NCBI GenBank assembly: GCA_964187785.1
Contig: OZ076409.1
Span: forward strand, 51,710,001 to 51,774,000
Length of the DNA: 64,000 nucleotides
Origin: Amphiscolops sp. MND2022
Lineage: Eukaryota
Reading direction: 5' to 3'
Shown in pieces: positions 7,361 to 36,075 of this stretch. The notes beneath the pieces are model-generated. The model did no database searches. It worked only from the letters and a program-made list of their open reading frames with translations, and was not told the origin of the DNA. Numbering within the stretch: the first letter of the stretch is position 1; the number at the start of each line of letters is the position of its first letter. Both the position numbers and the translations under genes were made by a program.

Positions 7361-8235
7361 GAATCAGTGACAGCATTGTCCTTCGTTTGTTGGACGGGAA
7401 CGTCCTTTTTTGATTCTGGATTGTTGTGACGCTTAGGTCGTGGATCATTGGCAGAGTTGGCTCCGTTCCAACAATCTTCCGTTTTGTGGGGTTTGCCACA
7501 TGTTTCGCATTTGAGCGGTTTGCCTGCACTAGAGTTAGTTTGACCATTGTTTTTCCTGGTTTGCATCCATTTATCTCTCTTCATTTTTCTGCATTCTGCC
7601 TTATAGTGTCCGAATTTGTTGCAGTAGAAGCAATATCCTTTTTTGACATTTTGCGTTGTGTTGTCGACTTGTTTGGGCTCAGTTTTTGTTGGGGCTGGTT
7701 CTGCTTTGTTTAGCGGTACCAAGGTTACCTCATCCGGCGCTCCTAAGCCGTTAAGTCTCATTTCGCGTTCTAGGTGGAGTACTATATCATTATAGGATTT
7801 ATCCTCGAGGTATGCCCTGTTTAGTATTTTCTTGACGTGGTCTGGCATCTTTGCATAGATCGCCTTATCAATAAATTGTTGGGCTTCAGAGCCAAAAGCT
7901 TCCTTGGCAGTTTTTTGAAGTATGTCCAGAAATTCGTGGAGTTTCTGGTTCGAGAGGTCGAATTTGAGCGCGTCCCATTCGCATCTTGCCTTGGCCATAG
8001 ACAAATAATCTCCGAAGCGTCGTTTGAAAATCGTCATGATCTCATCAAGTGAATCCTTTTTCGTATCTTCGATATTGCAAAATGCTTGTAAGGCATCTCC
8101 CCTGAGGAGGGAGTGGAAGTAGTTTATTTTTTGGATTTCAGTAAGGTGTGGGTACATTTTTATGTTGTTCCGGAAAAGGTCTTCGAATAGTTCAAATTTT
8201 TCCGACTTCCCGTCGAAGGTCGGGAGTGACGCCGT
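7351..8235 (-). CDS. gag: Gypsy gag, 3' portion (capsid-like region + two CCHC zinc knuckles)
   Basis: LPTFDGKSEKFELFE; CFYCNKFGHYKAEC and CETCGKPHKTEDC; the ORF-track ATG at 8238 comes from the inserted TIR. Confidence 0.9.
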   Translation of the reverse strand, partial: TASLPTFDGKSEKFELFEDLFRNNIKMYPHLTEIQKINYFHSLLRGDALQAFCNIEDTKKDSLDEIMTIFKRRFGDYLSMAKARCEWDALKFDLSNQKLHEFLDILQKTAKEAFGSEAQQFIDKAIYAKMPDHVKKILNRAYLEDKSYNDIVLHLEREMRLNGLGAPDEVTLVPLNKAEPAPTKTEPKQVDNTTQNVKKGYCFYCNKFGHYKAECRKMKRDKWMQTRKNNGQTNSSAGKPLKCETCGKPHKTEDCWNGANSANDPRPKRHNNPESKKDVPVQQTKDNAVTDSKN

Positions 8236-8257
8236 CATTACGATACACGTACCGGTA
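8236..8257 (+). repeat. Left terminal inverted repeat CATTACGATACACGTACCGGTA
   Basis: Reverse complement of 36052-36073 with 2 mismatches. Confidence 0.92.
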
Positions 8258-8313
8258 AGCTGCCTTTAGTCAAGCAGCGTAATCTGAGTAAAATGGTAAA
8301 ATGATCATTCAGC

Positions 8314-8545
8314 GTAAGTTAGTCAAGACGGTCTATGCTTCAACGGTGTAGCAAAATCAACGCGCGTAATGGAAAATTGTGTAAGTTAGTCAAAACATGT
8401 AATTAGAAAAAAGCGGAAGTTAGTCCAAAAATACTCTTTTTCGTAAGTCAGTCAAAACGTTGACTAACTTCCACTTTTTGCAAATTGAGGGACTCCTATA
8501 CTTCCGAAAAGTGGAATGTGGTCAAAGTTTTGACTAACTTACACC
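8314..8545. repeat. Left subterminal short repeats (AAGTTAGTCAA, both orientations)
   Basis: Copies near 8316, 8383, 8417 and 8445, inverted copies near 8460 and 8530; related AGTTAGTCAA/AACTAGTCA copies at 35844-35921 near the right end. Confidence 0.7.
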
Positions 8546-9145: not shown

Positions 9146-9642
9146 TCCCCATCCTTCAATTGGTCAAATGGAAAAGAGAATGAGAGAATTGATTTCAAAA
9201 TTGAATTACTTTGTATCATGGTTAAGCATTAAAAGCTTTGAATAAAGCCACGTGACATATACGTCACGTTACATATACGGTACATGTATGTTTTAAAAGT
9301 TTATGAATGTGTGCAAAGCAGCGGCAAGTGGGGATGTTGGCGCGGTGGATAAGTCCATCGGATGTGACTGTTAGTCACTGAGTACCACAGGATCGATCCC
9401 AGCCATTAGCACACTGGCGAATCGATACATACAACTCTTACAAAGATACCCTTCATATTTGGCAGCTCATGTCTCTCGGGCCGAATATTCCACATTGAAG
9501 GAATCAGCACCGCTGCAACATCCTTTTTGATGAGAGGAACTCCAAGGTGTGACCTTGTTCTGTGCCGCAACTTTGTGTGCCCCACAAATGATGCAATGAT
9601 GATTGCTAATGATTGCAATGATTAGAGATGGCGAGATACTAG

Positions 9643-10476: not shown

Positions 10477-10767
<291 letters not shown>

Positions 10768-12949
10768 TGTAGTAGAAAATCCCACATTGAAGGTATCAAC
10801 ACCGCTGTAACATCCTTGTAGTAGTAGTAGTAGCCTACTCAGTAGGCTACCTTCTGAGAAAATCCCACATTGAAGGAATCAACACCGCTGTAACATCCTT
10901 GTTGATGAGAGGAACTCTTGAATGTAAACTTCCTTAAAAAGTTTAGACTGGTCCGATTAACTGTTTAAACTGATTGATTACGCAAAAATAGTGTGAAGAA
11001 TTGAGATTCTAAATTCCAAACTCTCAATTTGAAAAAAATTAAATTGATGGTTTCTAGTTTGTATTCAACTTGAATACAAACTAGAAACCATCAATTTAAT
11101 TTTTTTCAAAGTGAGAGTTTGGAATTGAGATACAAACATTCTTTTTTTGAAATCTTCTGATCTTTTTTTGATACCTGTCGTGAGCTTCAGCAAAAACTGT
11201 TCCGAAAAATTGTTTTTTCGATTAACTGTACTCTTTTGTACGAAAGAAAGGAAAGTAAAGACAAGATTAAAAAGCCATTAGTTTAAAAGTAACCCGCTTT
11301 TGAGATTTGTAAACGAACGATTTTCATAAATCAGGGAAGTTTACAAAAGTGTAGTTCCAAACTGAACGAACTGTTTCATTCTTTTGTTTACCATTCATCA
11401 ATCAAATTTTAAGTTGTTACAGCAACTCATGGTTTTCTTTAAGGATGCGAATAAGTCCTACCTTATAAGGTAACGAAAGTTTCACTCATCATGAGTGATG
11501 ATCAGCTCTCATTTCCTTATAAGGTACGCGCTGTCCCATTTCTATGAAAAAGCTACCTTATTACCTTATTTGGTCAATACGGTGATTCATCGTTGACGAA
11601 CAAGCGTGCGCGTATTACCTTATTTGGTCAGTAAGCGCCTGCTTTAAAGTATTTCAAGTTTGATCGCGGTAAAATTCCAATTAAATTGGCGGTTATCAGA
11701 TCTTCTCGAAGAGACCAATTTCCCTTATGAGTAGGCATTGGATTTATTTGGAAATTACAGTAGTAGCAGAAGCATACAATAAAATATGGATACCATTTGG
11801 TTGATGGCTAGACAATACGGAAAAAAATACGGAAGAAGCGTTGAATATGTGAAAGTAAAAACAGTCTTTACTTCTGAGTCAGAAATAAATACTGTTTTTA
11901 TTTTCACATATTCAACGCTTCTTCCGTATTCTGAGAAGTACTGAGATTAGTGATTGTTAATCGTGTCGCTTCTCAGAAACGTCAATTTAGCTAAGTATTG
12001 AATAATTTCTATCAAAATAGATATAAACTTATGTAAGGCGAAATATGGAGAAACATGACATTTGGATACAAATAAATCCTAAGCCTACTCATGATTGTTC
12101 GCTATGGATGAATCAAATGAAGATGTTTGGAATTTGGCAGTCAGAATTTGTAACAGACAGCAATATCATTGTTTTGTTGGTAAATATGAACGCCAATGCG
12201 AATTCTAAAATTGATGATTGACACTTCAATAGTGATTCTTTCTCACCACTGTTACAATACGCTTCTGACAGCAGAAAGTGGTTCGCAATACTAGCCCCGA
12301 GAAGAAAAGTTTAGCTCCGAAATTTATCATTACTAGAAAAGCAAAACGGTTGACCGTTGAATCCTCTCCCTTTACAGAAGTTTCAACAGTGTTAGTAGGT
12401 AAGATATTGATAGTTTTGTTTCCTTTCCGTAGTATTCAGCTATCTAAAAATTTATTCTCTTCACTAAAAGCTTTAAATATAGTATATCTTCAAACAAACT
12501 CCTGTTTCACCTCCTTTGGAAAAACGAATAATTCTTCTATATTGAATCTGAATCAGTTACTAAGGAACTGGATATAAGTTGAGTCGGACACTTTTCAATG
12601 TCCCTCATATTATCGTCACGGCTGTGATTACGCTCACGGCAGGGACCAAAGTTCAGAAATTTGATTGAGAGTAAAAACATTTATGGTAAACAAGGTAACT
12701 CAGTAAACAAACAAAATCCTGAAATTTGGTCCCTGTCGTGAGCGCAATGTTAATAAACAATTCATTAACTTGTCAGCATAACAACAAACACTGTCTGCCA
12801 GGCAACAGTGGCCGACAATAATTGATAAATTGTTTAATGCGTAAATTTAAATGATTAAATTTACGCATTAAACAATTTATCAATTATTGTCGGCCAGACC
12901 GTGATGATGAATTGTTTATTGATAAATTGTTTAAACTGAGTTGCAGCTA

Positions 12950-13538: not shown

Positions 13539-15548
13539 TTAGGAGCAATGTTCCTTTACGTGCATCCTATAATTTTCCATTGTCTTGAAATTAACATTGG
13601 ATACGAGTGTCGCGTGAACATTAATGTTGCTGTTGAAGTTTAGAGTTGATGTTTTGTCAACTTTGAATTTCAGGGACGTAATGACAGCTGTTCCATCCGC
13701 AACTTTGTCCCATTCGTTGCCCAATATGTGGTCCCATGCTGATGTTGAAAAAGGGCCGTCGTCTTCTTTGATGGAGAATGTCACTGGGCCATTTGTGACA
13801 CCGAACGCGTGAATCGTCGCATCAGTGCAAGGGGCAAAATCTTGCTTGATGTCTTTGACTCTGCTGCGTCCACTGAGGGAATTCATCAACAAGTTTTCAG
13901 GTTAGAATATGCCCAATACACTAACGCATGGTCGTCGTATAACGGCGCGCCAGGTGCGTTTTCAACTGCTCCCAGTCTTTTTTTCCGGAGATAACTTACA
14001 GGGACTGTTGCGTTGAAGGAAGGATCGTCCTGTTTTTCGACTTCTACGAGAAGTTTCGTCTTTAAATAGTAAATAGAATTAATCTTCCAATCGCAGCCCA
14101 AAATTTCAACAATGTCTCCCTTGATGACGACTCCGGTGCTGATGGGGACACAAACTAGTTCTTTTCGTTCAAGTGGGGTACTTTTGAAACTCTGGGAAGG
14201 TCCACCAATTATGGCCTGGTATTGCATCAGGATTACCCGGGCCGAATAATTTATCGTAGTCACTATTCCAAAGTTTAAAAAATATTAGAAAAATGTTTGA
14301 AAAGTACTACAACTAACCCATTGAACCTATTTTGGTTGGTGATATGCAAATGATAATAGGTATTTTTGCCAAAATTGAGAACTCAATTCGCTTCGGAAAA
14401 ACTGAGGATAAAGCACTTCGGAAACTTTTCCTAGTAGTATTGTCAAAAAGATTAATGTATTCTACAAAAAAAAATTAAATCAACTGTACGTGCTTTTTCT
14501 CGGGAGGCTGCCAACAACTTGCAACGTTAAACTTGCAATCATTCAACCCTCATAGTCTAGCTAAAAAATAGTTGTACCTCTGTTAAAAAAATATTGAAGT
14601 AGTATTTTCGGTAAGCCTGCTTTACATCAATTTTAGTCTTCTTTTTAGGCATCTTGGCGGGGATCGTGGCCTCTATTCCGCGGGTCACCAACACCGTGAC
14701 TTTTTTGTCAAACACCGTCTTTTTGTCGCATCTTGAAGTAACGTGTTCTTCGTCAGATTCATCCGAGGACTCGGAGTCCTCGGGTTCTTCGAATTTCACT
14801 TTTTTGAAAACGGATGCTGCTTTTGTGACGATTCGCATCGAAGCTGGTAGTATTTGATGGGGACCAAATTCACATTTTCTAGCTGTTCTTCGAAAAAAAC
14901 GTTTTCCTCTATTGGTATCACAACTGGCGATATCAACATTTCTTTACGGAAGGGATCGTTTTTCATTACGAAACCTTCTTCGATGTCCCCTATGTGTCGT
15001 ACGCCGTCTTTAGCATGGGCCAGTGTGTAATGAACTTTATCGATTCTAACACGTTTTTCTTTCATGTAGCCCAGAACATCAAGGCTCAGTGTCAGTTCAA
15101 CGCTACGGCTGTAGCTTGGAATTGGCGTTTCGTTCTTTCGGATGGGCCATTTCTCTGGAAAGTCGTGGAATTTTGGGGGTGTTCTAACAACTCCTGCTGC
15201 ATGTTTTGAGTTGTAATCTAACCATTTGACTTTCGCCTGGAAACAAAAACGTTTTAAAATGTAACTCATTGAACAAAATTCATTAGCAGTAGTGATATTT
15301 CTGAAAGCAACAAATGGCAAGACTGAAAATCGAATATCTCTAAAACAACAGCGATTTCTGAAAAAAATTATGAGGATGAAAGTTTCTTAGATTTTCATGT
15401 ATGTTTATTTGAAGAATATAGGATGAAAATTTAATACCTCATGAGTTCGGTGAAATTCGGTGACGTAGGCTGATCGCCAAAGTCCACATTCTTCCTCGAA
15501 ACATTGCAGGAGTTCTCCGACTTTGAAATTTTTCGAGAATGTCTGCAT
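13539..15548 (-). pseudogene. Spliced gene with N-terminal Tudor/chromo-barrel (Royal family)-like domain and acidic stretch; frameshifted downstream
   Basis: Exon 15548-15438 (MQTFSKNFKVGELLQCFEEECGLWRSAYVTEFHRTHE) splices in phase 0 to 15236 (AKVKWLDYNSKH); frame changes near 14840 and 13890; linkage of the 13539-14263 ORFs is uncertain. Confidence 0.55.
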
Positions 15549-16371
15549 TGTCTGTTGTTTCGCACTCGGTTCAAGACTCGGTACTAGTAGTGGGTTTAAG
15601 AGAACTAAATTCAGTGTCTTTGTAGTGAAATGAGACTAATATTATGTTGCTCTAAGCAAGCTAAGTTAGCAAAAAGACTTCAACTTGAACTGACTTCAAC
15701 AAAAATTAGAATAACTTCAACTTAAACTTGTCACAGCCGCAAAACCAAATTGGGTTAAATTGGTCCAGAATGATATACCGGCCCGCGGGCGTTAATTTGA
15801 ACCAATATGGTCAAAACTTAGATTTTCGGATAATCAGTTGAATTGCACAATGGAAAAATTAGTCTATTTAATGATGCTATTCATTACTATCCAATTTATA
15901 GTAATGAACGATGCCTCCTATGATGGGGATGACCATCATTACAAGGCCCACTTCATCCAATATTCAATCTTGGTTGAAACCTAAACCACAAAACCAAATT
16001 GGGTTAAATTGTTCCAGAGTATTTTGCCGGCCCGGGGGCGTTAATTTGAACTTGATTTTCGAATAATGATAATTATGAAGTGATTAGATAATGATGCCCC
16101 GTCCTGGCTGACTTCAAGTCACGCTGATAAGTCACGCTTTAAGTTACGCTGATTGACCATCTTACGCTGCATGACTGAAATCCATTCTACCGGGAAGTGT
16201 CTCGTTATTACATCGTAAAATCGAAAAGGGAATAAGTTTTTGAATTCATCATTTGAAATCAATTCCTCGTCAAGTTCAGACCTCAATTTTATTCAAACTT
16301 CTCAACTATATTGTTGCAACAACCAGTTTACTAATCTCTTGAATTCGAGAATCAAACTGAAATTTTCCAAA

Positions 16372-19300
16372 ATGCTCGATGCTTCTTTTTCTCAAACAAC
16401 ATCTTCCCAAACTTCGGTCAACATTGCTATCGAGCAAATTATTGCCCGTCATTTGAATGATGATGGAATTGTACAAGAAGTTATCCATGAACTCGCGCCT
16501 CCTCCTGTTCTGACAAGTCAGATATCTCATCCTCACGCTCAGGCTGATATATATGACTTCGTTCCATCGAACTCATCAATGCCAGCAGTAATCGCCGAAA
16601 ATCATACAGGTTCAACATTTTTTGGTACTTTAAAACGTTTATTGGGCGCATTATACTTTTTCCCTCGGCTATGTGTCGTCTGTTGATAGTTCCAGTTACG
16701 TAGTTACACTCAGTGTCAGTAATTTGCATAATTCTAAATAAATGTCGCACTATGTCAGATAAATTTTACGGAACAAAGTGCTCTACATAACTGGGTAGCG
16801 TTCTAAAGTATTGCAAATCCATAATAATACTTGACTATATACCACAATAATAAGTTGAATAATATCCATAATAAGTTGAATAATACTTTCTGAACAAGTT
16901 TTGGTCAAACATTTGCCGTCGAGAATGATCCTGCCGAATTAGTAATTAGTAAACTACAAAATAAACATGATTTCAGTTCAATTCGCAGTGTGTATATAAC
17001 TGAAATCCTGAGTGATTTCACTGGAATAATTTTATGCCTTGTAATGGAGCTCACACCAGGGACCAAAATTTTGAAATCAATCGTAGAACATCGAAATTGT
17101 TTTTGTGAAAAACGGATGTTTCCAACTGAGTAAATTATTGAGCTAAACAATCAGTGTAGGATAAAAATAGTTTTTTTTAGATAACTGAATGCAATCAATT
17201 TTTTCTGAATTTCCTTGGATTTATATGCTTTCTCTTATTTAAAAAAAAAACAGATTGATTTCAAAAATCAATTAGGTTTCGGTAATCAAATGTTTCTTGA
17301 TTGGCAGAAAATGGCATGTTTATTGTATTTAAGGTTATCAAACTCCATCATGGAAACCCCCAGGCCCCAAAGAGCAGCTTGAAAATTCTAGTGTCCCGCT
17401 TCAAACACGCCCAGAGGGATTGAATAACCCCCATTCAACACCACATCCGAACCATGCGTCATCAACGAACTTCGCCGCTCCATTGAGCCCGATCGACGCG
17501 GTCAATTCCAACGGGAGCAACTATGATTCTCCCCTCGAACTTCAGCCAGCGGCCCAGGATGCAAATGGTCGTGGTGAACTGTTGAGCGTCATGTCAAAAT
17601 GGGCAGAAGGACGCTCTCATGTCGAACATCTAGTGGAAACTAACCGTGTTCCTCAAAAAGAAGGAGCCATGCTTGTGTTCCAGTCGCTCGTGATCATCTG
17701 GTGTGTCATCAACAACTACCCTGCCCGACTTCTCAAGAAGTTCACTGTGTATGACTTTGTGAACTTCGTCAAGAAAGGAAATGGTCAATATGTTTGTGCT
17801 GTGACTGATGGAAACAAGTACAAATTTAGGAGGGCTTTAAAGTTCAACGAGTTCGAGCAAAAAGTGATGACTTTCTATTTCAAACGTGTTCGCCCATTTT
17901 GGATAAATGCATTCGATGTTCTGAAAGACAGTTTTCTCACAGAACCCTTAGATTTGACTCTGCAAGAAGTAACACAGTCATTTTTTTATAATTCACTAGG
18001 GAAAAAGCAATTGAATGTTACCAGAGTTTGTGAGAACTTTCAAAACAAAATGAATGCAACCCACAGGAAGCCGAAAAGAAGACTCATCTACGAGCCAACT
18101 ACAACAATTCTCGAAAATGATGGAACTGTTAGTTCAACAGTGGAAATGATATCGCAGGCAACCAAAACGCCACCAAACAACACCCCCGATTCTGATTCAG
18201 CAGCTCAAAGACAGTTGAAGCCAGTGGAGATGACTACGATGTCCCCGACTTCAAAAAAACAACTGTTCTACTCTAGTGATAGCTTTACCAGTCTCAATTC
18301 AGTAAGTTAAATCTTTTAGTATCCATCATTACGATACTCGTACCGGTATGCTGCTGTCAGTCAAGCAGCGCAATCTGAGTAAAATGGTAAAATGGTCATT
18401 CAGCGTAAGTTAGTCAAGTATGGAGTAGAACAGATGATCGTGCGCACTGAAAAGTTATTGGATTGAATTTGGTCCCTGCCATGAGCACAGCTGAAAATTT
18501 TTATTCAATAAAAATTTTTTCAGCTGTTCTCATGGGAGGGACCAAATTCAACCCAATCAAGTTGATCCTCAGGAGTTGAACTTGATTGGGTTGAATTTGG
18601 TCCCTGCGATGAGCACAGCTGAAAATTTTGGACTGAATTTTTTGGACTGAAAAAGTCCACATTGCTCGAGGTGAACAAAACTCCTACAAAACTCTACTAA
18701 AGTAGTTAGTTTATGAAATTTTTCAGGTGAAAAAATTTTTCATTCTTCCGAATAATCCCGAGGACACTATTCCGACGCCGGCCGAATGCAGGGAAGAAAT
18801 CATGAGAAGAGTTTGCATTGATGCGGCAGCAGCAAAAAACCTCGGAGGACGTGTGAATGACCACTTGCGCTACAAACTCGTGAATTTGCGTGTCCAAAAA
18901 ACCATTAACTTCTTCCATGGACCGACTCAACCGTCCCGAGATTGCGTAGCAAAATTCGTCCGCAATCGTGGTTGGTCGGATCACGCAAGAATTGTCGACC
19001 AAGCGATGATAGCGTGGAAGCCTGCAAATAGTGATGTTAGACGAATCACTAGACGTACAGTACCTGAAGTAATTCAGACGGATCTCGGAAGAGGCGTGTG
19101 TATGTTTTTTTGCAAGCTGACATCAACTTTTGTGAACACCTCAAAAATACAAGAGTACATCTGTAACCAAGAGTGGCCCTTCCTCCAAGTTCGTGAAAAA
19201 ATATTGTTCGCGAATGGTTCTGTCGGCCGCGGAGTGGTCACAACTGCCTCAATCAAAGAATCGGAAATAGTTTGTGACTACCACACAGACCTTGTCATAG

Positions 19301-19734
19301 ACCAGGCACTATTACGAGAACGTTCAAACACGCAGTATGTTCTTGACTGTGGTGATTTTGTGCTCGATGCTACTGCCGAAACGTGCAAATGTCACCCTGG
19401 TAGAAGATCGTTTGGACGTCTCCTCAACTACAGACCGAGCAACAACCAAGAATGTAATGTGAGAATGAAGCGGGCAAATATCGGTGGCCAAGATGTAGTT
19501 CTGTTCGTTGCGAAGAGATCCATCGATGTCTTGGAGGAACTCTGCTTCGATTACAATGATGCAGTTTGCAGGGCAGAGTTTTGCCAGCAACTTTCCAATT
19601 CCTCGGGTGCCTCATGGTCCACACAGACCCAAGGAACATCTACCACTGGCAGTGAATCTGAGCGAGAGACCTCTACTACTACTACTAGTAACTCTCAAGT
19701 GACCGAGACGCCTGGAAGTCCTACCCTCTTTTGA
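16372..19734 (+). CDS. ~737-aa protein: tyrosine-recombinase-like region + C-terminal SET domain (SETD8/PR-Set7-like)
   Basis: Exons 16372-16609, 17334-18301 and 18727-19734 join in frame; SET motifs GRGVVTT, DY, LDAT, FGRLLNY, EELCFDY; YR-like VCAVTDGNKYK...YFKRVRP...FFYNSLGK. Confidence 0.8.
18327..18418 (+). repeat. Internal 92-bp copy of the transposon left end (TIR + subterminal repeat), in an intron
   Basis: 85/92 identical to 8236-8327. Confidence 0.9.
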
Positions 19735-20347
19735 AACTTGAAGTGTAATCATTAGTGAAGATGATCTTAGTACAGTAGCGTGATTTTAAAAAAAATGCCC
19801 GGCCTGCCTCTACACTAAGCGTTATCATAAATGATCGATTGCATATTTGCTCAATTTCAACTGATTATATATTTTCAACACTTTCAACTGATATCATATT
19901 TCAACATATTTTCAACTAATAACTCATTTTCAAATAGTTTTTTTTACCGAAGACAGTATTTTTCTTCCTTACATGACGATGATACGTATGATACTAGTGG
20001 AGTCTCTCATAAATTAAAAAAATGTTTTCAGGACATCCAAAGGAGTTTTTTTTGAATTTTTGAATTACGTTTCGAGTTACTTGGTTTTTTTTCTCTGAGG
20101 TTAACGCTTTATCGCATAACGAGACAACCCGGTAAAATAGGTTTCAGGCACGCAGCTGTATGATCTCGGACATTTCAAAAAGTCTGTCGGAAGTTTGCAA
20201 TTTGTTTTTTCTTCTTCTACCGTGACGGTCACTTCTGGTGGCAATCATAACTTTTGAAATTGTTTTCATAATCATTAAGCCAGTATCATCGTTTTTGTGA
20301 TTTGTTGCTGGTTTCTTGCTTAAACAGGTTTTGTATTTCAGATCGAA

Positions 20348-23300
20348 ATGATACAAAAACCAATCATCACTTATGCTGGCATCAATTACGTGAAACTCAC
20401 ATTCCTGAACGTCTTGTTCCCGAATGTGTTCCTGCTGGAAAGCAATGACTGCCTTCTTCCCAATGATCGCAGAAAGGCTACAGATTTCCTCAAGAAGCAT
20501 TTAAAAGGTTTACTTTCTTTCCTTTTTTAATCAAAAACATAACTAGATATCGTAAACGTAATCGTACAAAACGTGGTTGTGAGATGTAAGGAATGCACTT
20601 GAGCATAGCATTGTAGTTGATCGTTCGTGGCACGTTTTGATTCATGATTGTTGCAGGACTGAACGTAAACTTCTCTGATGTATACAAGCCCCATGGGATC
20701 AAAGAAAGATGTCCTTTGTTGCGCGAAGACGTATTCGATTTATTGATAATATCTGCACCTCCATCATTGATTCCCTGGACGACTGAAAGAGTTGGCTATA
20801 TACGACAATTTTTCCCTTCGTTGCCCATTCCAGACTCAACCTCTTTTTTAACAATTCAAGTTGACGCTATTTTTTCACAACAGTCATTGGAAACAGGCGT
20901 TTCGCTGCAGAATTTTTGGAGCTCTTCTTTGAAGACTATATCAGAATCAGAAATTGCATTGGGTCAATTTATTGAAACTCTCAAGCAGTTTTTCACAAGT
21001 CAAACTTTGAAAATCAAGAAAAAAAACACCTTAGTTCATAAACTTCTTCATCTATTTCTGCCAAACTTGTTTTGCCTTGAAAGGGAAGACATTCAAATGG
21101 AGATTCAATGCCTACTTACTCTCAGTAATCCTCAGGATCTTTTAGTCAAAATACGTCGACTTATACAATGCCCTTTCATCAAATCCACCATTCTCCCTTC
21201 AAGACGTGAACTTCAAGCAATCACAAATAAATTGAACGAAGATTTCAGATTAATACTTACTCCCAGAAGAACCCCCACTGGGTTCCGTGTTAATCTTGTT
21301 TCATTTGTCAGATTCGTTGCCTGCAATTTGTATAACAAGACCAGCTTAGTCGGCTTGAGAGTCGACATTTATGGTGATGCAATGTCTCGGGGGAAAAAAG
21401 ACGTCGTACGAATGGCCTTCCGAATTTTGCAAAGCGGCATCGAAACTGAGCAATCCTCAACCCATGTCTTCACGTTTGCTGTGTTTGAGGTGAGTCGTTC
21501 AAGTTTTAATCTAATTTTAACTTTATTAACTTGATTTTAACTTCATTCTAACTTGATTTCTATTGTGAGCTACATCAAAATGTTTATTGAGAACCTAATT
21601 TTGGTCCCTGTTGTGAGCTACACTTAATAGTTTAGTGGTAACGCGAATCTAAATTTGGTCCCTGTCGTGAGTTACACTTAAATGATTACTTAGTAGTTGG
21701 AAAACCAATTTGGTCTGTCTTGAGCAGCACTCAATTGTTTTGTTGATATAACTCTAAATTTTTCCCTGTTGTGAGAAACTGGAAGTTGAAATATGAATTT
21801 TTGGAATGTTTCCCAGGGTAAAGATGTGCGAATCAACCTGGAATACAATCTCGCCATGTCAGAAGTGCTTGGACGCCCTGGATGGCTATACAACGAAACA
21901 AAGGCCTTGCATGATGAAAGTGCTATACTGAGTTGCTCGGGTGATTCACCATTCCAACTGCGTCTTTTAAAAGGTGTTAGCAGTGATGTCTCTTGTCTGT
22001 CAAAGATGTGTCTTTATGTCAGTGATCCTGCAGATATTTCGAATCCACCAGTGAAACAGACAAAAAAAGACACCGCTGAATATAAGAAAGAAATGGAAGG
22101 AAGGGGGGTGATTCTTCCGTCAACTGTCGATTATGCTACTGGCCGAAGAACAGAACTGATCATTGACATCAACGAATGCATCCCAAAAGACTCTCTCATT
22201 TTTCTCAAATCCACTTTCAATACATGCCCTGATTTGCTGCATATGGTTGTCCGTTCAGTCGAAAGTGACTTGAAGTTGCATGTGGACTCGATGTTGCTGT
22301 TGAAAGACCATGCAGCAATATGTAGACTCGAATGTAACATAACGGAACGAAATGTGAAACCGCCGAGATTCAAGTTTGAGATCGCTGAAAAACTCTGCAA
22401 GGCTGTATCTCTCAGTTTCAGAGACGCCGAAGTCATAATATCCGACTGCAACAGAATCAGCGACTATGGCCGATCAGACTGCCCAATTTTTGAAGGTGTG
22501 TATTCATTCGAAACACCTCATGTCTACAAAGCTGACCAAACAACCTCTACAACGTCTTATAACGTGTTGATATCATTGGTTGATGGGTTGGAGACATCTT
22601 TCACAAAAGGAGTGGGTATTTCTGTTCGGAAACTGGCTGACCTCCAATTCCAATCTCTTTACCAGTTACTTGATTTGCTTCGACAGAGAGAATTCAAAGA
22701 CATTCAAAAGTGTAAAGATCTCTATGAGATTTATTACCAGTCAACTTTATGTCTTTTCGGTGATCGTGCGTTGACGCCATACAAATTGAAACTGGATATT
22801 TTACTCAGACTTTTTGAGAAGGGTGAGCTTCTGTCTCCATTTTATTACATGACAGAAGGAACTGAAAAAAGCCACCACACGGCAGCCAAAGACTACAATA
22901 CGAAGACAATGCGTGATGGTGACAATGATGCTTGGAACATGTCATCCTGTTATCTCGATATTCAGTTTTCCTTCTACCGTGCAATTGATTTATGTTCTTC
23001 AAAGTCTTCGACACTTGAATCTTACCGGAAGTTGTATGGAAAAACCGACGTGACAAAGACGTATCTTGAAATTTGCTGTGAACCCATTCCAGAACCTGAA
23101 CTTGACTATCTTAGAACTGAAGACATGTTTAGAGGTATGCACTTTGTCATTCTTGGAACATATGGTCACCTGAAAGAAACTCAAGCGAGTCTTGAGAAGA
23201 AGATCACTGAAAATGGAGGAAATGTTGTTTCCAATGTAGACATCATCAACAGAAGCAAGCTGAATTTTTTGAGCCATCACTATTGCATTTTACCAAATCG

Positions 23301-23643
23301 AAATTGTATCGACGCATTCATTAAAGGTCAACAAGGTAAAGAAAAAGCTGCAACGAAGGCGCTTTCCAATACGATACTCGGTAACTGGATTTACTTGAAC
23401 GCTGAATTTGTAATCGCCTGTGTACAGAAGAAGTCTTTGATTGATCCCAAAGGCTATGTTTTTGAAGTAGATGAGTCTGCGAGAGCCAAATTCAAAACGA
23501 TGAAGTACATATCTATGGCCCCACAATTACAACGTCAATCAAACCCCCTACGACATGGTTCATTAACTTACCACACAGCAATGCGGAAGTACAAGAACGC
23601 ACTAAAAAAGGCCACATTGAAGAGAAAACTAGACGACGTTTAA
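20348..23643 (+). CDS. ~939-aa RAG1/Transib/CMC-like DDE transposase with C-terminal BRCT domain
   Basis: Exons 20348-20507, 20657-21489 and 21817-23643 in frame; candidate D (YGDAM), D (VSSDVS), CPDLLH, TPYK and E (TEGTEKSH); BRCT pattern FRGMHFVILG...IT-NGG-VV...FVIACVQKKSLIDPKGY. Confidence 0.75.
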
Positions 23644-24304
23644 TACCTAAAAACTTACTTATTTTATTACTAATTCAGTAGACAAGGTCCATTTGACCGC
23701 TTCATTGTCAATTCAGTGCTATCTACTAGGTGATTCAAATTTGGTACATTTCTTAGAAGCGAAAATGCTTTCACACATTAAAAGTGAGAACGAAATGACT
23801 GGTATAGACGTATATTTTTGATGGTTCAAACCATCTTTGGTTGAAAATGTGATTACGTAATTTGATCTTAAATCTAAATGAATGACAGAAAAAATTGAAC
23901 GATTATCAGTGCCTTGCTTACAAATATTTTATGTTATAATTTAAACTTATGATAGATCTATGATGATAGATTGAACCAAATATTCGCAATTCAACTTATA
24001 CTTCCATGGTATATCTTTTCGCCGTGACGTTTTCTCTGAAAAGTTCATCAGTCGAAATTTTGATCCCCGTCGTGAGCGCAATATTTAACTGCATCGAGTT
24101 TACATTCCCTCTGTTACCTTATTTACTATTGAATGATCTATGACAGTTGTCTCAGGAATGATCTATGAGGACGTGTGACTTCCTGGAATAGTGTGACTTG
24201 TTGTGAGTTGTTGGATGTATATATTTGACAATCATTTTATAGTTAATTTCATACAATATTGATTGGTGTATAACTTATGAGCGAATTTTTTCAGTTGATA
24301 TCAA

Positions 24305-27300
24305 ATGGCAACACTGCCGACCACGCCATCAACGTCTCGTCGAACGACACCAGCGAAAGTCCCATGCGGCCAAGGTTCGATAACAATTTTTTTGTGATCA
24401 AGCTGTAACGTAATCAAGCTGTAACTTTTTTTCACGGAAAAGTTTAATCTGACATATGGCATTCCTTTTAGGCACTTGTGACGTTGTGGACAAGCTGTCC
24501 AACATCCTACGCCACCGCAAAGTCTGTCCCCGAATGCCACGAGAGCAGTTCAAGCTCATGGAGAGAACGTGCCAGCTCTGCGGCCAGATCATTTCCGCCA
24601 AAAAACTGCTGAAGAAGCACTACAATACAAAGTATTGTAAGGAGCAGCAAAAGCGGAAAGCAGAAGGCCTGCCTACCCGAATGTACCAGTACGGTTAGTC
24701 ATTACAATGTATGTTAAAAATTGATCGACTTGTAACATTTTAAACTCAATGATTTTGAAAAAAAGTCTAGGTCTCAAACAAAAAGTGTGTTTTTATTCAT
24801 GTAACTTCTATGTTACAGCAGCTGCAAAAGGCTTGACGCGGAGGCCTAACTTATGCTACGGCAGAGGTTGTGGCAAGTCATATGTTTACCCTTATGACTT
24901 GCGCGTGCACCTTTTGAAGAATCCTCAATGCCAGGAAGGAGCGAATGTGAGTGCCTGTCCTATTTTTTTCTCTTTAAGAACACATGTTGAATGATTTGAT
25001 TGACCATTTGACTCTCGAAACGCCGTGTTTTAAACGGTGACAATGTGACTGGAACTCCGAATGAGTCATTTTATCGTGGCAACTGTTTAGGCTGCAGTAT
25101 CTTTGGGCTCCGATTCGTCTACTAGTAGCAACACTGACGAGCGATTCAGGCCAGAAGATTTCAACCACATTCCTTCTGATGTGTTTGGGTCTGATGGATT
25201 TTTCAAGTTCGCGATGGAAGTGCCCCTCGACTACAAGTTTCCTGTAGCTCAATGGGAAGGCAACGTTGACGACCATGTCGTCAAATTCAATTCCCTGATG
25301 AGACACAGTGTGCCTCTGTTGTGGCGTGGAGGTGTCAACCATTGCCATGGTTTGAAGCTGCCTCAAGTGGAAGAACTCGCTTTCACTCAAGTTGTCCAAC
25401 AGCTTCTAGTCCCCCAGAAGCTACAAGCAAGTGCAGCAACCATCAATGTCAAGTCGGCAAAACTTGGAGAAGTAAGTCTTTGGTAGAATTACTTTCAATT
25501 TGAAGCTTGTTTTTTTCGTAAAATATCTGGAACAACTGCAATTTGATCCCTGTCGTGAGCTCATTTTCCAACTTGGACAAGTCTTTGGTAGAATTACTTT
25601 CAATTTCAAATTTTCAAGTAATGCTTCAAGTTGAAGCTTGTATTTTTCGTAAATATCGAACAACTGCAATTTGATCCCTGTCGTGAGCTCATTCTCCAAC
25701 TTGGGCAAGTTGAATTTGTCGAACAACTGCATTTGAACTATTCTAACAATGAGAAAGTTGTCCGTCTTATTCCCGTCTTAGTCACTTTATGATCATTTCA
25801 TTTCAGAGTCGTGACCTCAGTCTCGACGAGTTCAAGCAGGAGCTCATCAACGCCGACAGAAGCAGCGTTTACTATCCTTTAAACGCTATAGACATCGCCA
25901 TGCAGCCAAAGGTAAACAACATTGAATGAGCTCCTTTGATTTGATGGAAAACGCAAATCCAGTGAAAAACGACTTTTCTTTTATTGTTTTCCCCAACCCC
26001 CTGTTTGCTAGTAGTTGCGTACAAATTGGACTTTGAGGATTTTATTCAACATAATGCACATTGTTTTGAAACAACTTCAACTTATATTGATTTTTTTGTC
26101 TTTTCAGTCCATCTACAGCGTGCCAACGATGATAAAAAAGTCGTCAGTGAACCACCTTGTGGACGAGCTGGTCAGTAAGTCAGCAGAACCGTTCTCAGTA
26201 GCGACTTCATACTACTTGCTGATCTCCAACGATGGTTGTCAAACAACTTGGCACACGGACTTCAGTTCAACATCTGTCTTTTATACAGTCTTGACTGGGT
26301 CCAAGACCTTCTTTCTGGTTGCGTCAACTGAAAACAACATGAAGTTGTTCAATGCCTGGTCCAAACAAGAATCCGACGACATGTGAGTTGAATTTTTTCA
26401 CCAAGGAATTTCAGCTTTTGTGTTCATCTATTTTTGTATTTTTGCATCATTTTGCATCACGGGCCATCATTTCCGTACGTGTTTTCATTGTATTTGCGAA
26501 ATTTTCAACTTTCAATGCACTATATTGTTTTTGCATCGCCGAATATTTTAAGAATAGTCGCTTAGAGTTCCAACAGTTTTCGTTTTAGGCCAACATTTTT
26601 TGGATGCCACAAAAGACTGGAGGGGGGTTGCCTCAGGGTTACTCTTAATCCGGGCGACGTTTTCGCCATGCCGTCTCAGTACATCCATACAGTCCTCACA
26701 AGTGGAGACTCTGTGGCAATAGGGACGAATTTCCTTTCAGAAGGTCATTCGAACCAGTTCAAAAAGGCGATCATTGAAGAAGACTCCATCAGGGAGCATG
26801 AGAAGTTTCCGGGCATGTTGGAAATGCTAGCTACTTTGATGCTCAAAGCATCAGAGAGATGCATGATAACTCCGGACTTCCTTCGTCTTCACAGAGCCAT
26901 TGAGAATCGATATCAAGAAAGTGAAGCTGTTGCTGTGAGTTGTATTTTTTAGTTCACAATCGTTTAGAATCAAACTAAGTTATCGAATTAAGTATTTGTA
27001 TAATGAAGCAGTGTTGTGACTCACAACAGGGACCAAAACTGAAATTGGTAATCATAATGAATAATGTTGATGATGACGTTGTGGCTCACGACAGGGACCA
27101 AAATTAAAGGTGGTAATGATTACCAATTTTAATTTCGGTCCCTGTCGTGAGCCACAAGGTCATCATCAACATTATTTGTTGATGATCAACAAAGTTGATC
27201 AAATAGCTTGGTGAGTTATCACGAGTTTTGTTTCAGATTTGCCCCGAATTCAGCAAGGAGAGACTCGTTTACAATATTTGCTCGCGCAAAGACTTCGTAA

Positions 27301-27863
27301 ACGATGTTCATGTCACTGCTTTCACGGAAACGGCCTCAAAAAGGGCATATCTTCTTTGCCCCAAGCCTTGCTTCAGAAGGAGGAACTGGTTTACAAACGA
27401 GGACGGCGTGAGGGTCCCGAAGGAAGCAATTTCTGAGGAGCGCCTCACTTTCTTGTGCCGAAGACCTGATGTTGACGAGCCGAATCGTGATGTTTTGATC
27501 AGCTATGAGGAAGCCATCACGTATGTGCACCCGCGACCGTCACAAACAGTAAGAGCTTTGCACAAAATGCCGAAAAGAAAAACCCTCGTTCAAGACCGTG
27601 GTAAGTTTGCTTATTTTAGTTACATCCTGGTTGTTTCGTCTTAGTATACATAGTGGTAATGTAAGTGATGATATTCAAAACTGGTCACCTGGTTGAACAT
27701 CCGTAAGGCTTACATTTGATTTTCTTATTTCCTAAAAAGACTTCAAAATGAAATTAATGGAGTGGTAATCGAATTCAATGTTTTTGTTTCAGAATTCAGA
27801 CCATCTACTGATCGTTACGTTGCTTCGATCATGAGCCACCATGTCCCTGCATACAGCTTGTAG
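24305..27863 (+). CDS. Nine-exon gene: three C2HC-type zinc fingers + JmjC domain (KDM2/KDM7-like putative histone demethylase)
   Basis: Exons approx. 24305-24374, 24472-24693, 24819-24946, 25091-25471, 25807-25911, 26108-26382, 26589-26934, 27237-27600, 27792-27863 with GT-AG introns; TTWHTDFSSTSVFYTVLTGSKTF and MPSQYIHTVLTSGDSVAIGTNFL. Confidence 0.85.
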
Positions 27864-28031
27864 TTGCGTACAGACTGAGTTGTGCTTAAGAAGTTCTCGA
27901 TCATTGTTAACTTAACATGTTGAACTTTCTTGTCTCCGAGTTATTTGTTGTGCTCAGTAAGTTGTACACTGTGGCTCGGTATAAACTTGTAGCTTGAAAA
28001 ACTGCTCTAGATTTTTCGAATGACCGTCAAC

Positions 28032-28391
28032 CAGGGGTGTTAAATATTGCATTGCAATACTATTGCAATACTAATAAAACAATCTTTTGTTATTCTGAAT
28101 TTTGTTGAAACAATAATTGCAATTATTGTGTCTATGAAAAAGATTGTTTGAAAAACCAATCAAATCAATTTGTTGATCAAATTACCATCTGAAAATTGTT
28201 CGTTGATCATTATTAGTTTGACTGAAAAGTCCGCCAAATTGGAAGTATTTGGCACCCAACTCATGTCTCCGAATTCTTTCCTTATTGTGAAAAATCAACA
28301 ATGTATTGTATTTGATAACGTTCTGAAAATAATTATTGTATACAATTTTATTGCAATTATTGTGACCTAGAATTATTTTTTAACACCCCTG
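28032..28391. mobile_element. hAT-type MITE
   Basis: TIR CAGGGGTGTTAAA/TTTAACACCCCTG, 8-bp TSD CCGTCAAC. Confidence 0.9.
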
Positions 28392-29723
28392 CCGTCAACA
28401 ACCTGGTATTTTTTGTTCATAGCAAATTCAGCAAAACATTCAGCAAATTATTACGGCAAAGTCCAATTACCTCATAGTCTAGTTAAAATCTTTATTTTAA
28501 CTAATCATTTCACGGTAAAAAAAATTGTTGTTGACCATTATTCAATTATTAGGTTACTATTCATTCAATAAGTTAATGTGTACAATTTACCTTCGATTTA
28601 TAGTGCATTCAAAGTTTGTACAGCCTTGATCGTTTGTAAGTTTGTAATGTTCTGAATTGTATCAACTGTGTTTTGGACAATTACTGTCGGAAATGTCGAG
28701 TAGTTGTTCCCAAAAAAAGAGGGACATCTACCGTCGGAAATATCGGGTGGTTGTTTCCAAAAAAAATATCAAATACCGTCAAAATCAATCATTGATGGCC
28801 GCCGGAAGTCATCGGGTCATCGGAAGGGAGTTTCCAATTAACTTCGCCTTTGTGCTCCCTTGCATCGTATGTTTTCTCTTTCAGTACAGGCCGAGTATGA
28901 ATAATAGAAGCAAAAGCCTCTTTGTTAAGGAGAAAAACAGTGTTTAAGGTTGTTTAAGAATAGAAAAACGGTCAAACGTCCCAATTCAGATTCAGTTGTC
29001 TGTAACTTTTTCAATTTTCGTCTGAAAAATTTCAACGTTAAACTAATGTAAACTAGAAGAAAATTTAAGAATAGTTTCCTTCTGACAATTTTACAAATTT
29101 TCAATCGATTCCGAAAAAATCGAGCCTGAAAATGCTCGGGGGGTGTTTTCCTAATCACAGTACTAGAGCTCTCAACCAATGAAATGAACATGTGGGCATC
29201 AATTAGCCAATGATATCTATTCGTTCGTTCCGCCGGCGGCTGCTGTTTTTCAAAAGTTGATAAAAGTACTTCAAGTTGACTCAAGTTTGTTATGTTTGCT
29301 ATAGACCAAGACTCAAGTTATTTTAATTTTTCTTGACGCAGCTCGGAGAAGCAACATAAATACAGGTTACATTTTGATCCGTCGTGAGCAAATATAAAAC
29401 AGAGTTGCTAAACCATATTTTAAGTTAAGTACCAGCTCTGAGAAACTGTCTCTGTTTTCAACCACAGTATCCTTCTTTTCTTAGGATGTGTTTTCAGAAA
29501 GAAAACAACTTTCATTGAATATTGTATTTTGAATACAAAAATAGCACCAGTTTTATAATGGAATTTATGAACATTATAAAATCACAAAAAAATAATTGAA
29601 AATAAAAAATTTATCTCTTGTAGAGCAAATAAATAATGAGTTTTGAAACTTTAAAGTTTCAAAAATAGTGGAAAAGTCGTTGAAATCGTTTCAACAAAAC
29701 TTCGAGTCCCTCGGGTTCAGACA

Positions 29724-30107
29724 TTATTTCAGCCTGAGCAGGCATCCTTGTTTCCTGCAGAGTGGGCACTTCACCCAAAGGGCACGATCAGTGCTTTCCC
29801 TGTGAATCACAGTGATCAAAATTTTCGAACGATATCTAGAATGAGTTTGTTTTGTAACCACGTGTGTACCAAAAATTTCAGGAATACAAAAATGTAAAGG
29901 ACACGCCTCAAAAAATTGATCAGTGAAAATTATCAGAAAGGAAAAGTGAAAACAGCTTCAATAACAATTTTTCAAAGCAAAGTTCTGTGAAACTTACCTC
30001 TCAAGCACTTTGATCCAGGCTTGACGGCACTGATTGCATATCGCGTGTTTATCATGGAGAATCCAAAAACGCGAAAAGATCTTCTCTCCACAGACAGCGC
30101 AAAGCAT
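29724..30107 (-). CDS. Spliced RING-finger-like protein (not in ORF track); may extend upstream to ~30235 across a frameshift
   Basis: Exon 30107-29998 MLCAVCGEKIFSRFWILHDKHAICNQCRQAWIKVLE joins in frame (gtaagt...tctag) to 29835-29724 RYRSKILITVIHRESTDRALWVKCPLCRKQGCLLRLK*. Confidence 0.7.
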
Positions 30108-30607
30108 TTCCAGTTGGTTAATGTGTTTCAGGTGGTCAATAAGTACAATGATTTTTGAAAAGATATATCAGTCTTGTCACACGGTTGTTTGAAGATCGAA
30201 TGGCCAACAATCGGCCCGGGACATATAGAACACATCGTACGAAAGATTTGAACTTTATTTTGTCATTATCTTGTTTCTATGTACGAACAACTGGCTTTGT
30301 TTCATGACTTGACAACTTGCAAGTCCTTTTAATCCTTTCACTAAGTAACCACCTAGTTAATTTATAACCTCTGTACCTGTAACAAATAACCGTCTCCACT
30401 TATTATTTGGTTTAGTAAACCAACGCGGTACTTCGGTAGTGCCACTTTCATTCATTTCAAAATAAGATGATAGTCAAGATGATTCTTTCATTTCAGTTAT
30501 TATGTCGATATAATTGTATTTGTTTCAATGGTTTCAAAAAATGAAATAATTATTACTTTACAGAATTGAATGACGTACATATGTATGTTTACAAAGTTTA
30601 TGGAATT

Positions 30608-30803
30608 AACAAAGTTCATTCATTTATCACTACTAAAAAATTAATAACGTACATATGTGGTTTTGATCCCTGTCGTGAGCAACATCAAGTTGTAACAAAT
30701 AGTCTAACAAAGTTCATTCATTTATCACTACGAAAAAATTAATAACGTACATATGTGGTTTTGATCCTTGTCGTGAGCAACATCAAGTTGTAACAAATAG
30801 TCT
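30608..30803 (+). repeat. Two tandem ~98-bp units containing the 20-bp motif, related to the 191-bp direct repeat and to 34315-34395
   Basis: AACAAAGTTCATTCATTTATCACTAC...TTTTGATCCYTGTCGTGAGCAACATCAAGTTGTAACAAATAGTCT twice. Confidence 0.8.
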
Positions 30804-31403
30804 ATACGAATCTAAAACTCTGTTTGTGTCTAAAACTCTATCAATCTGAAATGTCTATTCCAAATCTCCAAGTACTTAAACGATTATTTAATTACCACTG
30901 CAGTAAATTTAGAATTGAGGCGTGTTGAATAAGGACAACTGCCAGTGAAGGTGCCACAGGCTGTTCAGTGAAGGTTTGTCGAAAACTGCTGAGAAGTGCT
31001 TACACCGTGTAAGCATTAATTAACACCATTAACACCGTGACGATTAAATAATTAATACTGCAGGAAAGGGTAGATTTGAGGCATTTTAATTATGACTATT
31101 CAAATTTTGTCGATAACCGCAGCAAAGTCTTTACACGATTAACTAATTACAATTACGAATTGAGGCTTTCTAATAATGATTTCTGAATTTCTGTCGAAAA
31201 CTGAAAAGTCGATTCAGTCAAACCTTTTACAACGATACTGTCAACTTGCTTTCATATCTCTCGCAATCATCAACTTCTGTTTTCATCAAATCTTAATTTC
31301 ATAATCAACTTCTGAACTTGTCAAAAACAGCAAAGTCGAATCAGTCAATTCTTTCGCATCAATATTTTCAACCTTCTTCCTCTCGCAATCATCAATATCT
31401 ATC

Positions 31404-31865
31404 ATGTTCGATCCCGCAGCAATGCCAATCAGGTCGTGTATTCGTCCAATAGATGAAATGATCTCAAACTGTGGACCACCACACAGAAAAAATGTGCGTT
31501 TTGCTGACTCAGCACCAATCTCGGTCTCAACCACCAATCAACTTGAAGCAACTCCCACATATCCGAGAGCTTGGAGAATCAAAAGAAGGGCACCCATTCC
31601 TGAAACTCCAACTCCACTGGCACCCACTCTAATGCACCCACTCCACTCCACTGGCACCCACTCCGGGAACAAAAAAGCAGTCACTACGGTAGGATCAAAA
31701 ACAGTGAGGTTCTCTTTCATAGAAAGGGCTGTATCACCGAATGGAGAAGTATCAGAGTCAGTCATTTCCTTCAATGACTCGGAAACCAATCCTTGTGACG
31801 AATACTGGAAACCTGGGGCTCTCGACGACAGGCCGTACATAATGAACTGCCGAACAACACGATAG
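31404..31865 (+). CDS. 153-aa Pro/Thr-rich ORF with two RVxF-like motifs
   Basis: ATG-initiated ORF, GC-richer than flanks; RKNVRFADS and SKTVRFSF. Confidence 0.5.
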   Translation: MFDPAAMPIRSCIRPIDEMISNCGPPHRKNVRFADSAPISVSTTNQLEATPTYPRAWRIKRRAPIPETPTPLAPTLMHPLHSTGTHSGNKKAVTTVGSKTVRFSFIERAVSPNGEVSESVISFNDSETNPCDEYWKPGALDDRPYIMNCRTTR

Positions 31866-32312: not shown

Positions 32313-32371
32313 AATGTAACATCGGTTCTAAAATCATTTCTGAATGTGGACGAAACAGTTTGGCTTCAGTA

Positions 32372-35608: not shown

Positions 35609-36051
35609 CATCCAAGACTTCCCAAACAAATGAAAGTAGGTCTCATAATGAAGGGGCGGTTGCTTCATTGAACTTGGTAATTTTGGTCCCTGTCGTGAGC
35701 ACTTCCTGTAGTCAGATTTACTGTTTATGCGATTTGATACTGTGTAGGCGAATCAAGCAGTGTAGTTACGAGTCGGCGTGTGTAGCTCACCAGTAAAAAC
35801 CCGTAATTGCCAGAATTATGTGTAAATATGAGATGCACAGTGTAGTTAGTCAAATTGCTTAAACTAGTCATATGGTGTAAGCTAGTCAATTACTGTACTA
35901 TCCAATGGTGTAAACTAGTCAACGTACGTAGCAAAATCAACGAGTGTAACGGCCTATCAATGCGCGTAATGTGAGAAAAGTGTAAAACTTCCAAAAAAAT
36001 ATTCGCGCTCTGATTGGACAAAAATCGAACTAGCAGGATCCTGCTAGTTCG

Positions 36052-36073
36052 TACCGGCATGTGTATCGTAATG
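36052..36073 (-). repeat. Right terminal inverted repeat
   Basis: Reads CATTACGATACACATGCCGGTA on the minus strand, followed by the GT TSD on plus. Confidence 0.92.
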
Positions 36074-36075
36074 GT

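Follow-up and report, generated by a model that had tools for sequence, protein, structure and literature searches.

A 27.8-kb multi-copy DNA transposon of Amphiscolops sp. with conserved SET and JmjC genes beside its presumed transposase

The sequence analysed here (referred to as the window) comprised 64,000 nucleotides of Amphiscolops sp. MND2022 (GenBank assembly GCA_964187785.1, contig OZ076409.1, positions 51,710,001 to 51,774,000 of the forward strand). Positions 8236-36073 of the window (27.8 kb, ends set by comparison with six other copies) are occupied by a copy of a DNA transposon that is very young and highly amplified. Four genes were found in its interior: a gene with an X domain and a SET domain (X-SET gene), a presumed transposase gene, a zinc-finger JmjC gene and a fourth gene with a possible small beta-barrel. 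The copy belongs to family A, and two diverged sister families were designated B and C. Genes and terminal features are listed below in window coordinates, together with the target-site duplication (TSD) and the terminal inverted repeats (TIRs).

8234..8235, no strand: left copy of the TSD, GT; the same dinucleotide stands after the right end
8236..8259, plus strand: left TIR, CATTACGATACAC; similarity starts here in 6/6 other copies
8314..8542, no strand: left subterminal short repeats (GTAAGTTAGTC), recognised by motif clustering
13539..15548, minus strand: fourth gene, possible small beta-barrel; exon blocks ~15435-15548, 14560-15386 and 13542-14284
16372..19734, plus strand: X-SET gene; low-complexity N-terminus, X domain, intron 18302-18726, SET exon 18727-19734
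20324..23643, plus strand: presumed transposase gene with C-terminal BRCT domain; exon blocks 20324-20527, 20641-21510 and 21810-23643
24471..27863, plus strand: zinc-finger JmjC gene; eight exon blocks conserved in families B and C (24471-24695, 24806-24952, 25151-25480, 25786-25917, 26027-26380, 26569-26946, 27216-27560 and 27789-27863)
35877..35920, no strand: right subterminal short repeats, recognised by motif clustering
36050..36073, minus strand: right TIR (CATGTGTATCGTAATG); similarity ends here in 5/5 unrearranged copies
36074..36075, no strand: right copy of the TSD, GT, matching the left dinucleotide

For end mapping, 10 kb per side of the six other copies were compared with the window. 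Similarity began at 8235/8236 in all six copies and stopped at 36073 in five; the sixth (L024) was rearranged on the right. The left terminus of the element is CATTACGATACA and its right terminus TGTATCGTAATG. Its first bases inside the left junction are CATTACGATACACGTACCGG and its last bases before the right junction are CCGGCATGTGTATCGTAATG (CATTACG...CGTAATG). The TIRs, perfect over 13 nt and imperfect with few mismatches over ~22 nt, lie exactly at the similarity limits. The flanking bases pair as a 2-bp TSD in 6/6 insertions with both junctions (window and five copies; the rearranged copy L023/L024 was excluded from this count). The duplicated dinucleotides vary among insertions (GT, AA, CC, CT, TT and CA) without sequence preference, and the flanks are unrelated between copies. 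The motif GTAARYTAGTC was matched six times in the window, five times within ~310 bp of the two ends (~0.11 matches expected by chance).

In the 1.07-Gb genome, 104 occurrences of the exact 29-nt left end were counted (53 forward, 51 reverse), versus none in the reversed control. These occurrences were spread over 13 large contigs and several small ones, and copies were 99.1-99.8% identical to one another. Since TIRs and a TSD are combined with dispersed near-identical copies, the element is a cut-and-paste-type transposon of 27.8 kb with ~100 copies. The initial annotation of this DNA had proposed a transposon with TIRs, and a true multi-copy TIR transposon is borne out by the TIRs, the TSD in 6/6 insertions and the 104 exact left ends. 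The interval it gave, 13539-27863, is not bounded by TIRs: no repeat is present at either coordinate and both are stop codons of the outermost genes. For the first and for the last 1,000 bases of this interval, at least 40 recurrences of 99-100% identity were found (40 candidates scored per search), and every copy retrieved matched on past the interval. A virus-like or Polinton-like nature of the element was also considered; it was rejected in view of the TIRs and the 2-bp TSD, and of the lack of a capsid or polymerase match when Pfam was run over all 79 stop-to-stop open reading frames (ORFs) of at least 70 aa.

The SET ORF (18706-19731, plus strand) matched Pfam PF00856 with an E-value of 3e-10 (40.9 bits, cut-off 22.4), and the sister-family SET sequence scored 43.9 bits with the same model. 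The best solved relatives of the domain were KMT5A/SETD8 (E 1.3e-6), and its GRGV motif and the tyrosine of its FDY motif (CFDY) aligned with the KMT5A motifs. Genome-wide, 109/128 matches to the SET ORF were stop-free. An ORF of 325 aa upstream of SET (17333-18307) contains, within 17591-18301, a conserved region of ~170 aa, the X domain. X and SET are regarded as one gene because a single 807-aa ORF holds both in a fourth, sister family (L046). In the window the two parts are separated by a predicted intron in phase 0 (18302-18726, GTAAGT...CAG). A first exon was tentatively placed near 16372-16650, based on weak similarity recognised by eye. Profile searches with the X domain yielded no relative in Pfam or among solved structures; in a language-model atlas, DUF3504 and integrase-like clusters scored 0.87, which was the sole lead. 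As a side observation at another locus (L045, C13:20114001-20117500), the Thr-rich C-terminal tail of the SET protein has grown into an (ACC)n-type microsatellite in some copies, and this expansion yields open frames of several hundred residues.

Two consecutive core exons of the JmjC gene matched adjacent parts of KDM2A (residues 162-213 and 229-297) and also PHF8 and KDM7, with E-values of 2e-8 and 3e-4. KDM2A scored as well as PHF8. The motifs WHTD, GSK and YIHTV aligned on FHVD, GGK and WIHAV of KDM2A. In this alignment the H-x-D motif, a Lys 17 positions beyond its His, and the second His all fell on their KDM2A counterparts, which we take to be the Fe(II) triad H-x-D...H and the Lys that binds 2-oxoglutarate. 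Upstream of the JmjC domain, the gene begins with a pair of weakly scoring C2H2-like fingers (window, E 0.02-0.07; a sister family, E 2.7e-4). The accessory modules of KDM7/PHF8 (PHD) or KDM2 (CXXC, PHD and F-box) were not found in this gene by Pfam. Genome-wide, 139/150 JmjC exon matches were stop-free, and their identity graded from 98% to 80%, which indicates several subfamilies. For comparison within family A, the JmjC region of seven copies was used (window and 6 of 8 loci; the duplicate of the window and one copy with an indel were dropped). Differences were found at 12/1,398 exon sites and 33/2,602 other sites.

Both enzyme-like genes had been named in the initial annotation and withstood these analyses. 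The SET gene has a complete, profile-supported domain, is present in well over 100 copies and is kept in two diverged families. The JmjC gene has a complete domain of the KDM2/KDM7/PHF8 type with apparently intact iron-binding residues and many copies; its zinc fingers are weak. That annotation had also listed properties that would speak against such genes, and none was observed for either: they are not single-copy host fragments, they do not evolve neutrally between families, and their domains did not fail in profile searches.

The large gene is the best conserved of the four; its large exon is 70-72% identical to the counterparts in families B and C. It was named presumed transposase because it is the sole conserved gene without another identity and nothing else is conserved between the families. 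A search of 1.84 billion proteins retrieved 377 representatives of the protein family at E ≤ 0.001. BRCT_2 was detected in 26/45 aligned members (best E 2e-7) and was sub-threshold in the 617-aa ORF of the window (21790-23640). Residues D288, D361, H364, E371, D373, E571, E574 and H578 (P0015 numbering) were invariant or near-invariant in the 45 members. None of these members matched RAG1/Transib or EnSpm transposases at E ≤ 10. The language-model atlas gave a weak resemblance to RAG1 (score 0.77); the Pfam RAG1 model PF12940 had no match in the genome, but it had none in the controls either. A structure model, computed from a shallow alignment of 11 rows, reached a mean predicted local distance difference test score (pLDDT) of 42.6, with only the BRCT part confident. 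Transposase exons were stop-free in 59/62 cases in family A and in only 3/10 matches in family B, which is older. The protein family is without Pfam assignment and may represent an undescribed or unrecognised transposase group.

The fourth gene starts at an invariant Met in its exon 1 (~15435-15548) and shares 43-70% amino-acid identity with its counterparts in families B and C. The window copy is broken by two private frameshifts, near 13.89 kb and at 14.8-14.9 kb, and in 7/7 other copies the frames are open (248 aa and 270-282 aa). No Pfam family was matched at E ≤ 5 with the window exons or at E ≤ 1 with intron-free forms of 426 and 431 aa, and a profile search of solved structures found no relative. 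For modelling, the 426-aa ORF of family C, which covers most of the gene, was used with a shallow alignment of 14 homologues. The model had a mean pLDDT of 37.2, and residues 219-287 formed six strands at pLDDT 50-63. This segment was compared with 48,161 solved chains using VIA-align. The best matches were BAH domains (AIPP3, Z 8.6; EBS, 8.4; Rsc2, 8.2; MET1, 8.0; DNMT1 BAH1, 7.2), accompanied by PWWP (7.4), Tudor (ERCC6L2, 6.9; SMN, 6.3; 53BP1, 6.3) and chromo-barrel domains (MRG15, 6.5). The same range (Z 8.6-6.0) also takes in KOW, SH3 and R67 DHFR folds, and best Z-scores of 7-8 are typical for models without a clear relative. Foldseek returned nothing for the model at E ≤ 0.001. Aromatic residues of the segment are conserved (W246 10/10, F270 10/10, Y/F252 10/10, Y278 9/13), in a low-confidence model in which cage geometry cannot be judged. 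A small SH3-like barrel is thus plausible from the model. The Tudor or chromo-barrel "reader" of the initial annotation survives only as a conserved gene: there was no profile match, the model was of low confidence, the fold matches were borderline and the window copy is frameshifted. A Tudor-like appearance of exon 1, noticed by eye, was dropped; its best match was a helix of the LDB1 dimerisation domain at a non-significant E of 0.15.

For comparison between families, one family B locus (30 kb; L037-L039) and one family C locus (24 kb; L043, L033 and L044) were used. The left end of the family B element falls outside the 30-kb stretch. All four genes are present at both loci, with amino-acid identities of 43-72%, and DNA outside the coding blocks could not be aligned between families. 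Family C has the gene order of family A. The JmjC gene of family B is located on the other side and inverted, and is still kept. The family B element ends in the same terminal 12-mer as family A. Proportions of synonymous (pS) and non-synonymous (pN) differences were calculated according to Nei-Gojobori. For each gene and each pair of families, pS was 0.62-0.93 (saturated) versus pN of 0.17-0.36, corresponding to pN/pS of 0.20-0.58, and values of the accessory genes were comparable in range with those of the N-terminal transposase part. Ratios are given as pN/pS instead of dN/dS because synonymous sites are saturated. These comparisons indicate that all four genes were retained under purifying selection across the three diverged families. 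Because they were kept despite saturated synonymous sites and rearrangement, the additional genes appear to be selected cargo and not passengers. Families A and B have in common, at 91% identity, a block of 158 bp (34427-34583; ~6611-6770 of L037) at a distance of ~1.3-1.5 kb from the right end; it may be a nested repeat present in both families or else a conserved cis element.

The copy in the window was inserted into the gag region of a minus-strand long terminal repeat (LTR) retrotransposon (window 1-8235 and 36074-36768). The insertion interrupts a DUF1759/gag-like ORF (7354-8265), which continues at 36074-36768. A neighbouring pol ORF with reverse transcriptase and RNase H domains lies at 4385-7363, and integrase zinc-binding and core domains are encoded in the ORF 2452-4398. 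Strong GC and AT skew over 1-8000 agrees with a retrotransposon in this region. A retroelement ORF of like kind is also present near the family B copy.

Several further repeats and short frames were recorded. All examined copies have a direct repeat of ~200 bp (8955-9154 and 35418-35613), one unit lying 720 bp inside the left terminus and the other 460 bp inside the right terminus. Hairpin or foldback repeats with the core GCTCACGACAGGGACCAAA (12627-12748, 17045-17081, 18457-18625, 21596-21676, 27014-27176 and 30607-30804) occur at scattered places in the element's introns and spacers and resemble insertions of the miniature inverted-repeat type that all copies inherited. At 12809-12896, an inverted repeat that is perfect over 42 bp encloses a 4-nt loop; it was found in the other copies too. 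A (GTA)n microsatellite of ~99 units at 10477-10775 accounts for overlapping ORFs on both strands at this position. The right 8 kb of the element (27900-36000) contain ORFs of up to 186 aa without Pfam matches above threshold, and a weak RING-like match was noted at 34638-34862 on the minus strand (E 2e-4). In the family B and C stretches compared, counterparts of this part were only two short blocks (near 33.6-34.1 and 34.3-34.7 kb). Outside the element, a direct repeat of 782 bp with 96.7% identity (42318-43091 and 47391-48172, ~5 kb apart) is probably the LTR pair of another retroelement.

The four-gene core includes a presumed metal-dependent transposase and three accessory genes. On balance, it appears probable that the accessory proteins alter lysine methylation for the benefit of the element. 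They would act on chromatin at or near the element's own copies, and anti-silencing would be combined with a conditioning of chromatin. The JmjC enzyme, guided by its zinc fingers, would erase repressive or repair-directing marks at the copies, and the SET enzyme would write a mark of its own. As an outcome, copies might stay transcribed, or target choice and the repair of transposition breaks might be steered; the BRCT tail of the transposase may point to the DNA-damage response. With respect to the element's "own chromatin-editing module" put forward initially, selected writer-like and eraser-like genes could be confirmed and the reader could not; a role in anti-silencing or target preparation is what we infer from these genes.

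Several observations weigh against this interpretation. The canonical N-H of the SET N-H-S motif is N-Y in 12/13 aligned SET family members and N-F in one. Mutating this His abolishes activity in some SET enzymes, and activity of the SET protein is not assured because N-Y replaces N-H. The alignment identifies Tyr-for-His as a fixed family trait rather than a sign of decay. The Pfam JmjC model scored 17.8 bits on a single exon (26015-26383), below the cut-off of 24. Presumed substrates (H4K20 for SET; H3K9, H3K27 or H3K36 for JmjC) are borrowed by analogy from distant relatives, and the methyl-lysine reader identity suggested by the model of the fourth protein is unproven. The large protein matched no transposase family in Pfam and none in NCBIfam (no relation to insertion sequence families); among solved structures only a weak match to the ligase IV BRCT domain was obtained, and its catalytic residues are a guess from conservation. 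Among the family-A copies, the JmjC exon changes (4 synonymous, 8 non-synonymous, all singletons) looked neutral and gave no within-family support for selection. Such differences are best read as neutral decay, as expected after insertion, with selection visible only between lineages. Finally, the family C locus (C11:44636001-44659800) is complex, with one extra left-end-like and two extra right-end-like motifs in the gene cluster. These extra ends have 34-bp inverted termini and the last exon of the barrel gene is duplicated; because the flanking dinucleotides are unpaired, the family C copy is considered nested or rearranged.

A bolder version of the proposed alteration of lysine methylation is that the module steers the repair of transposition breaks. 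SETD8 writes and PHF8 erases H4K20me1, BRCT domains act in break repair, and H4K20 readers were among the folds matched by the barrel segment. In its fullest form, a writer resembling SETD8, an eraser resembling PHF8/KDM7 and a reader resembling BAH/Tudor domains would make up a complete, self-encoded methylation circuit, beside a transposase with a BRCT tail, of a new superfamily-level lineage of giant animal transposons, reprogramming chromatin and break repair at its copies. We regard this as doubtful; if true, it would explain how a 27.8-kb element reached ~100 near-identical copies.

Three other explanations were weighed. Targeting or self-restraint seems unlikely. Here, the barrel and the zinc fingers would tether the machinery to methyl-marked chromatin, or the SET mark would limit activity or direct it to silent regions, as chromodomain integrases direct chromoviruses to silent, harmless regions. 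The retrotransposon sequences around the window copy and near the family B copy fit such a preference, as do the histone-mark-binding BAH, PWWP and Tudor domains among the best folds of the barrel segment, and conservation of the genes implies that some function is selected. However, flanks of only two insertions were examined, TSDs are without sequence preference and the modelled barrel fold is weakly supported. Strong self-restraint is argued against by the ~100 near-identical copies.

It is distinctly improbable that repair or non-histone substrates are the main object. In this case, the SETD8-like and PHF8/KDM7-like enzymes, the BAH/Tudor-like barrel and the BRCT-tailed transposase would jointly manipulate the methyl-lysine signalling of repair choice at double-strand breaks such that the donor site is refilled from the sister chromatid and copy number rises. 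H4K20 methylation, 53BP1 and repair choice are known to be linked. BRCT domains in more than half of the aligned transposase-family members (26/45), KMT5A/SETD8 as closest solved structure to SET, PHF8 and KDM7 among those closest to the JmjC core, and fold matches to DNMT1 BAH1 bound to H4K20me3 and to the 53BP1 tandem Tudor would agree with it. Against this, the substrates are all assigned through relatives whose matches reach only E 1e-6 to 1e-8, KDM2A, which acts on H3K36, scores like PHF8, and the barrel is uncertain. Large DNA transposons do capture host genes, but three host genes captured once and carried without function for the element are a highly improbable, disfavoured explanation: neutral-looking family-A differences and the broken barrel gene of the window are outweighed by the retention of all three genes at saturated synonymous sites with pN/pS of 0.2-0.58 (the transposase range) and through a rearrangement of gene order, by the apparent retention of catalytic residues and by open frames in most copies.

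The favoured reading, a transposon with accessory proteins acting on lysine methylation, would concern an animal element that keeps methyltransferase and demethylase homologues across deep divergence and is currently very successful. It would be a natural system for studying the control that chromatin marks exert on transposition, target choice and repair. Direct tests are feasible: many copies have intact genes, both termini are base-exact, and standard assays are available for the enzyme families. A search of literature titles and abstracts found no transposon with a JmjC gene or with SET and JmjC together; Repbase Reports was outside its scope, and a prior description there is possible.

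Few transposons that counter host silencing with their own enzymes or factors are known from the sources cited here (fungal TET/JBP, oomycete SET and VANC). VANC reportedly belongs to no known enzyme family. The Mutator-like element VANDAL21 of Arabidopsis encodes it as a factor against the epigenetic silencing of its own copies (PMC12730594), and a like role is suggested here for the JmjC protein with zinc fingers. VANC belongs to a plant system and its function was shown experimentally, whereas function in the present element is inferred.

According to the cited passages of PMC12730594 (Kojima 2025), SET genes were acquired by Phytophthora elements of the HarbingerS and MuDR families (citing Kojima & Jurka, Repbase Reports 2014). 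As here, these are cut-and-paste transposons with their own SET methyltransferase gene beside the transposase. Unlike here, the transposase is of the PIF/Harbinger or Mutator type and the host belongs to another kingdom; a JmjC gene or a third conserved gene is not mentioned in the cited passage. The same source reports TET/JBP dioxygenases from many fungal transposons (Kyakuja/Dileera/Zisupton, Plavaka, ESTA, PHISTA and others), in which they probably serve to evade silencing. These are likewise Fe(II)/2-oxoglutarate dioxygenases proposed to remove a silencing methyl mark, and the gene was kept or passed between element lineages (PMC12730594). Their substrate is 5-methylcytosine in DNA, whereas in the present element a JmjC lysine-demethylase homologue is paired with SET.

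As described in the cited part of PMC12730594, the CMCT clade comprises EnSpm/CACTA, Mirage, Chapaev, Transib, Plavaka, ESTA as well as Lanisha and is characterised by 5'-CA...TG-3' termini, a 2-5 bp TSD and motifs of the forms C(2)C and H(3-4)H. The element analysed here shares termini of the 5'-CA...TG-3' type (CATTACG...CGTAATG) and the 2-bp TSD. No conserved cysteine pair was found in the 45 aligned members of the presumed transposase, and conserved His residues were H364, H568 and H578 only, in a protein whose catalytic residues are themselves predicted. Membership in the clade is not claimed because these motifs are lacking and there was no profile match. An association of SET with a transposase is also known from primate SETMAR, a fusion of SET with the Hsmar1 mariner transposase (PMC9062482). 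SETMAR, as described there, is a single domesticated host gene, whereas the SET gene of the present element is a separate gene within an active multi-copy transposon.

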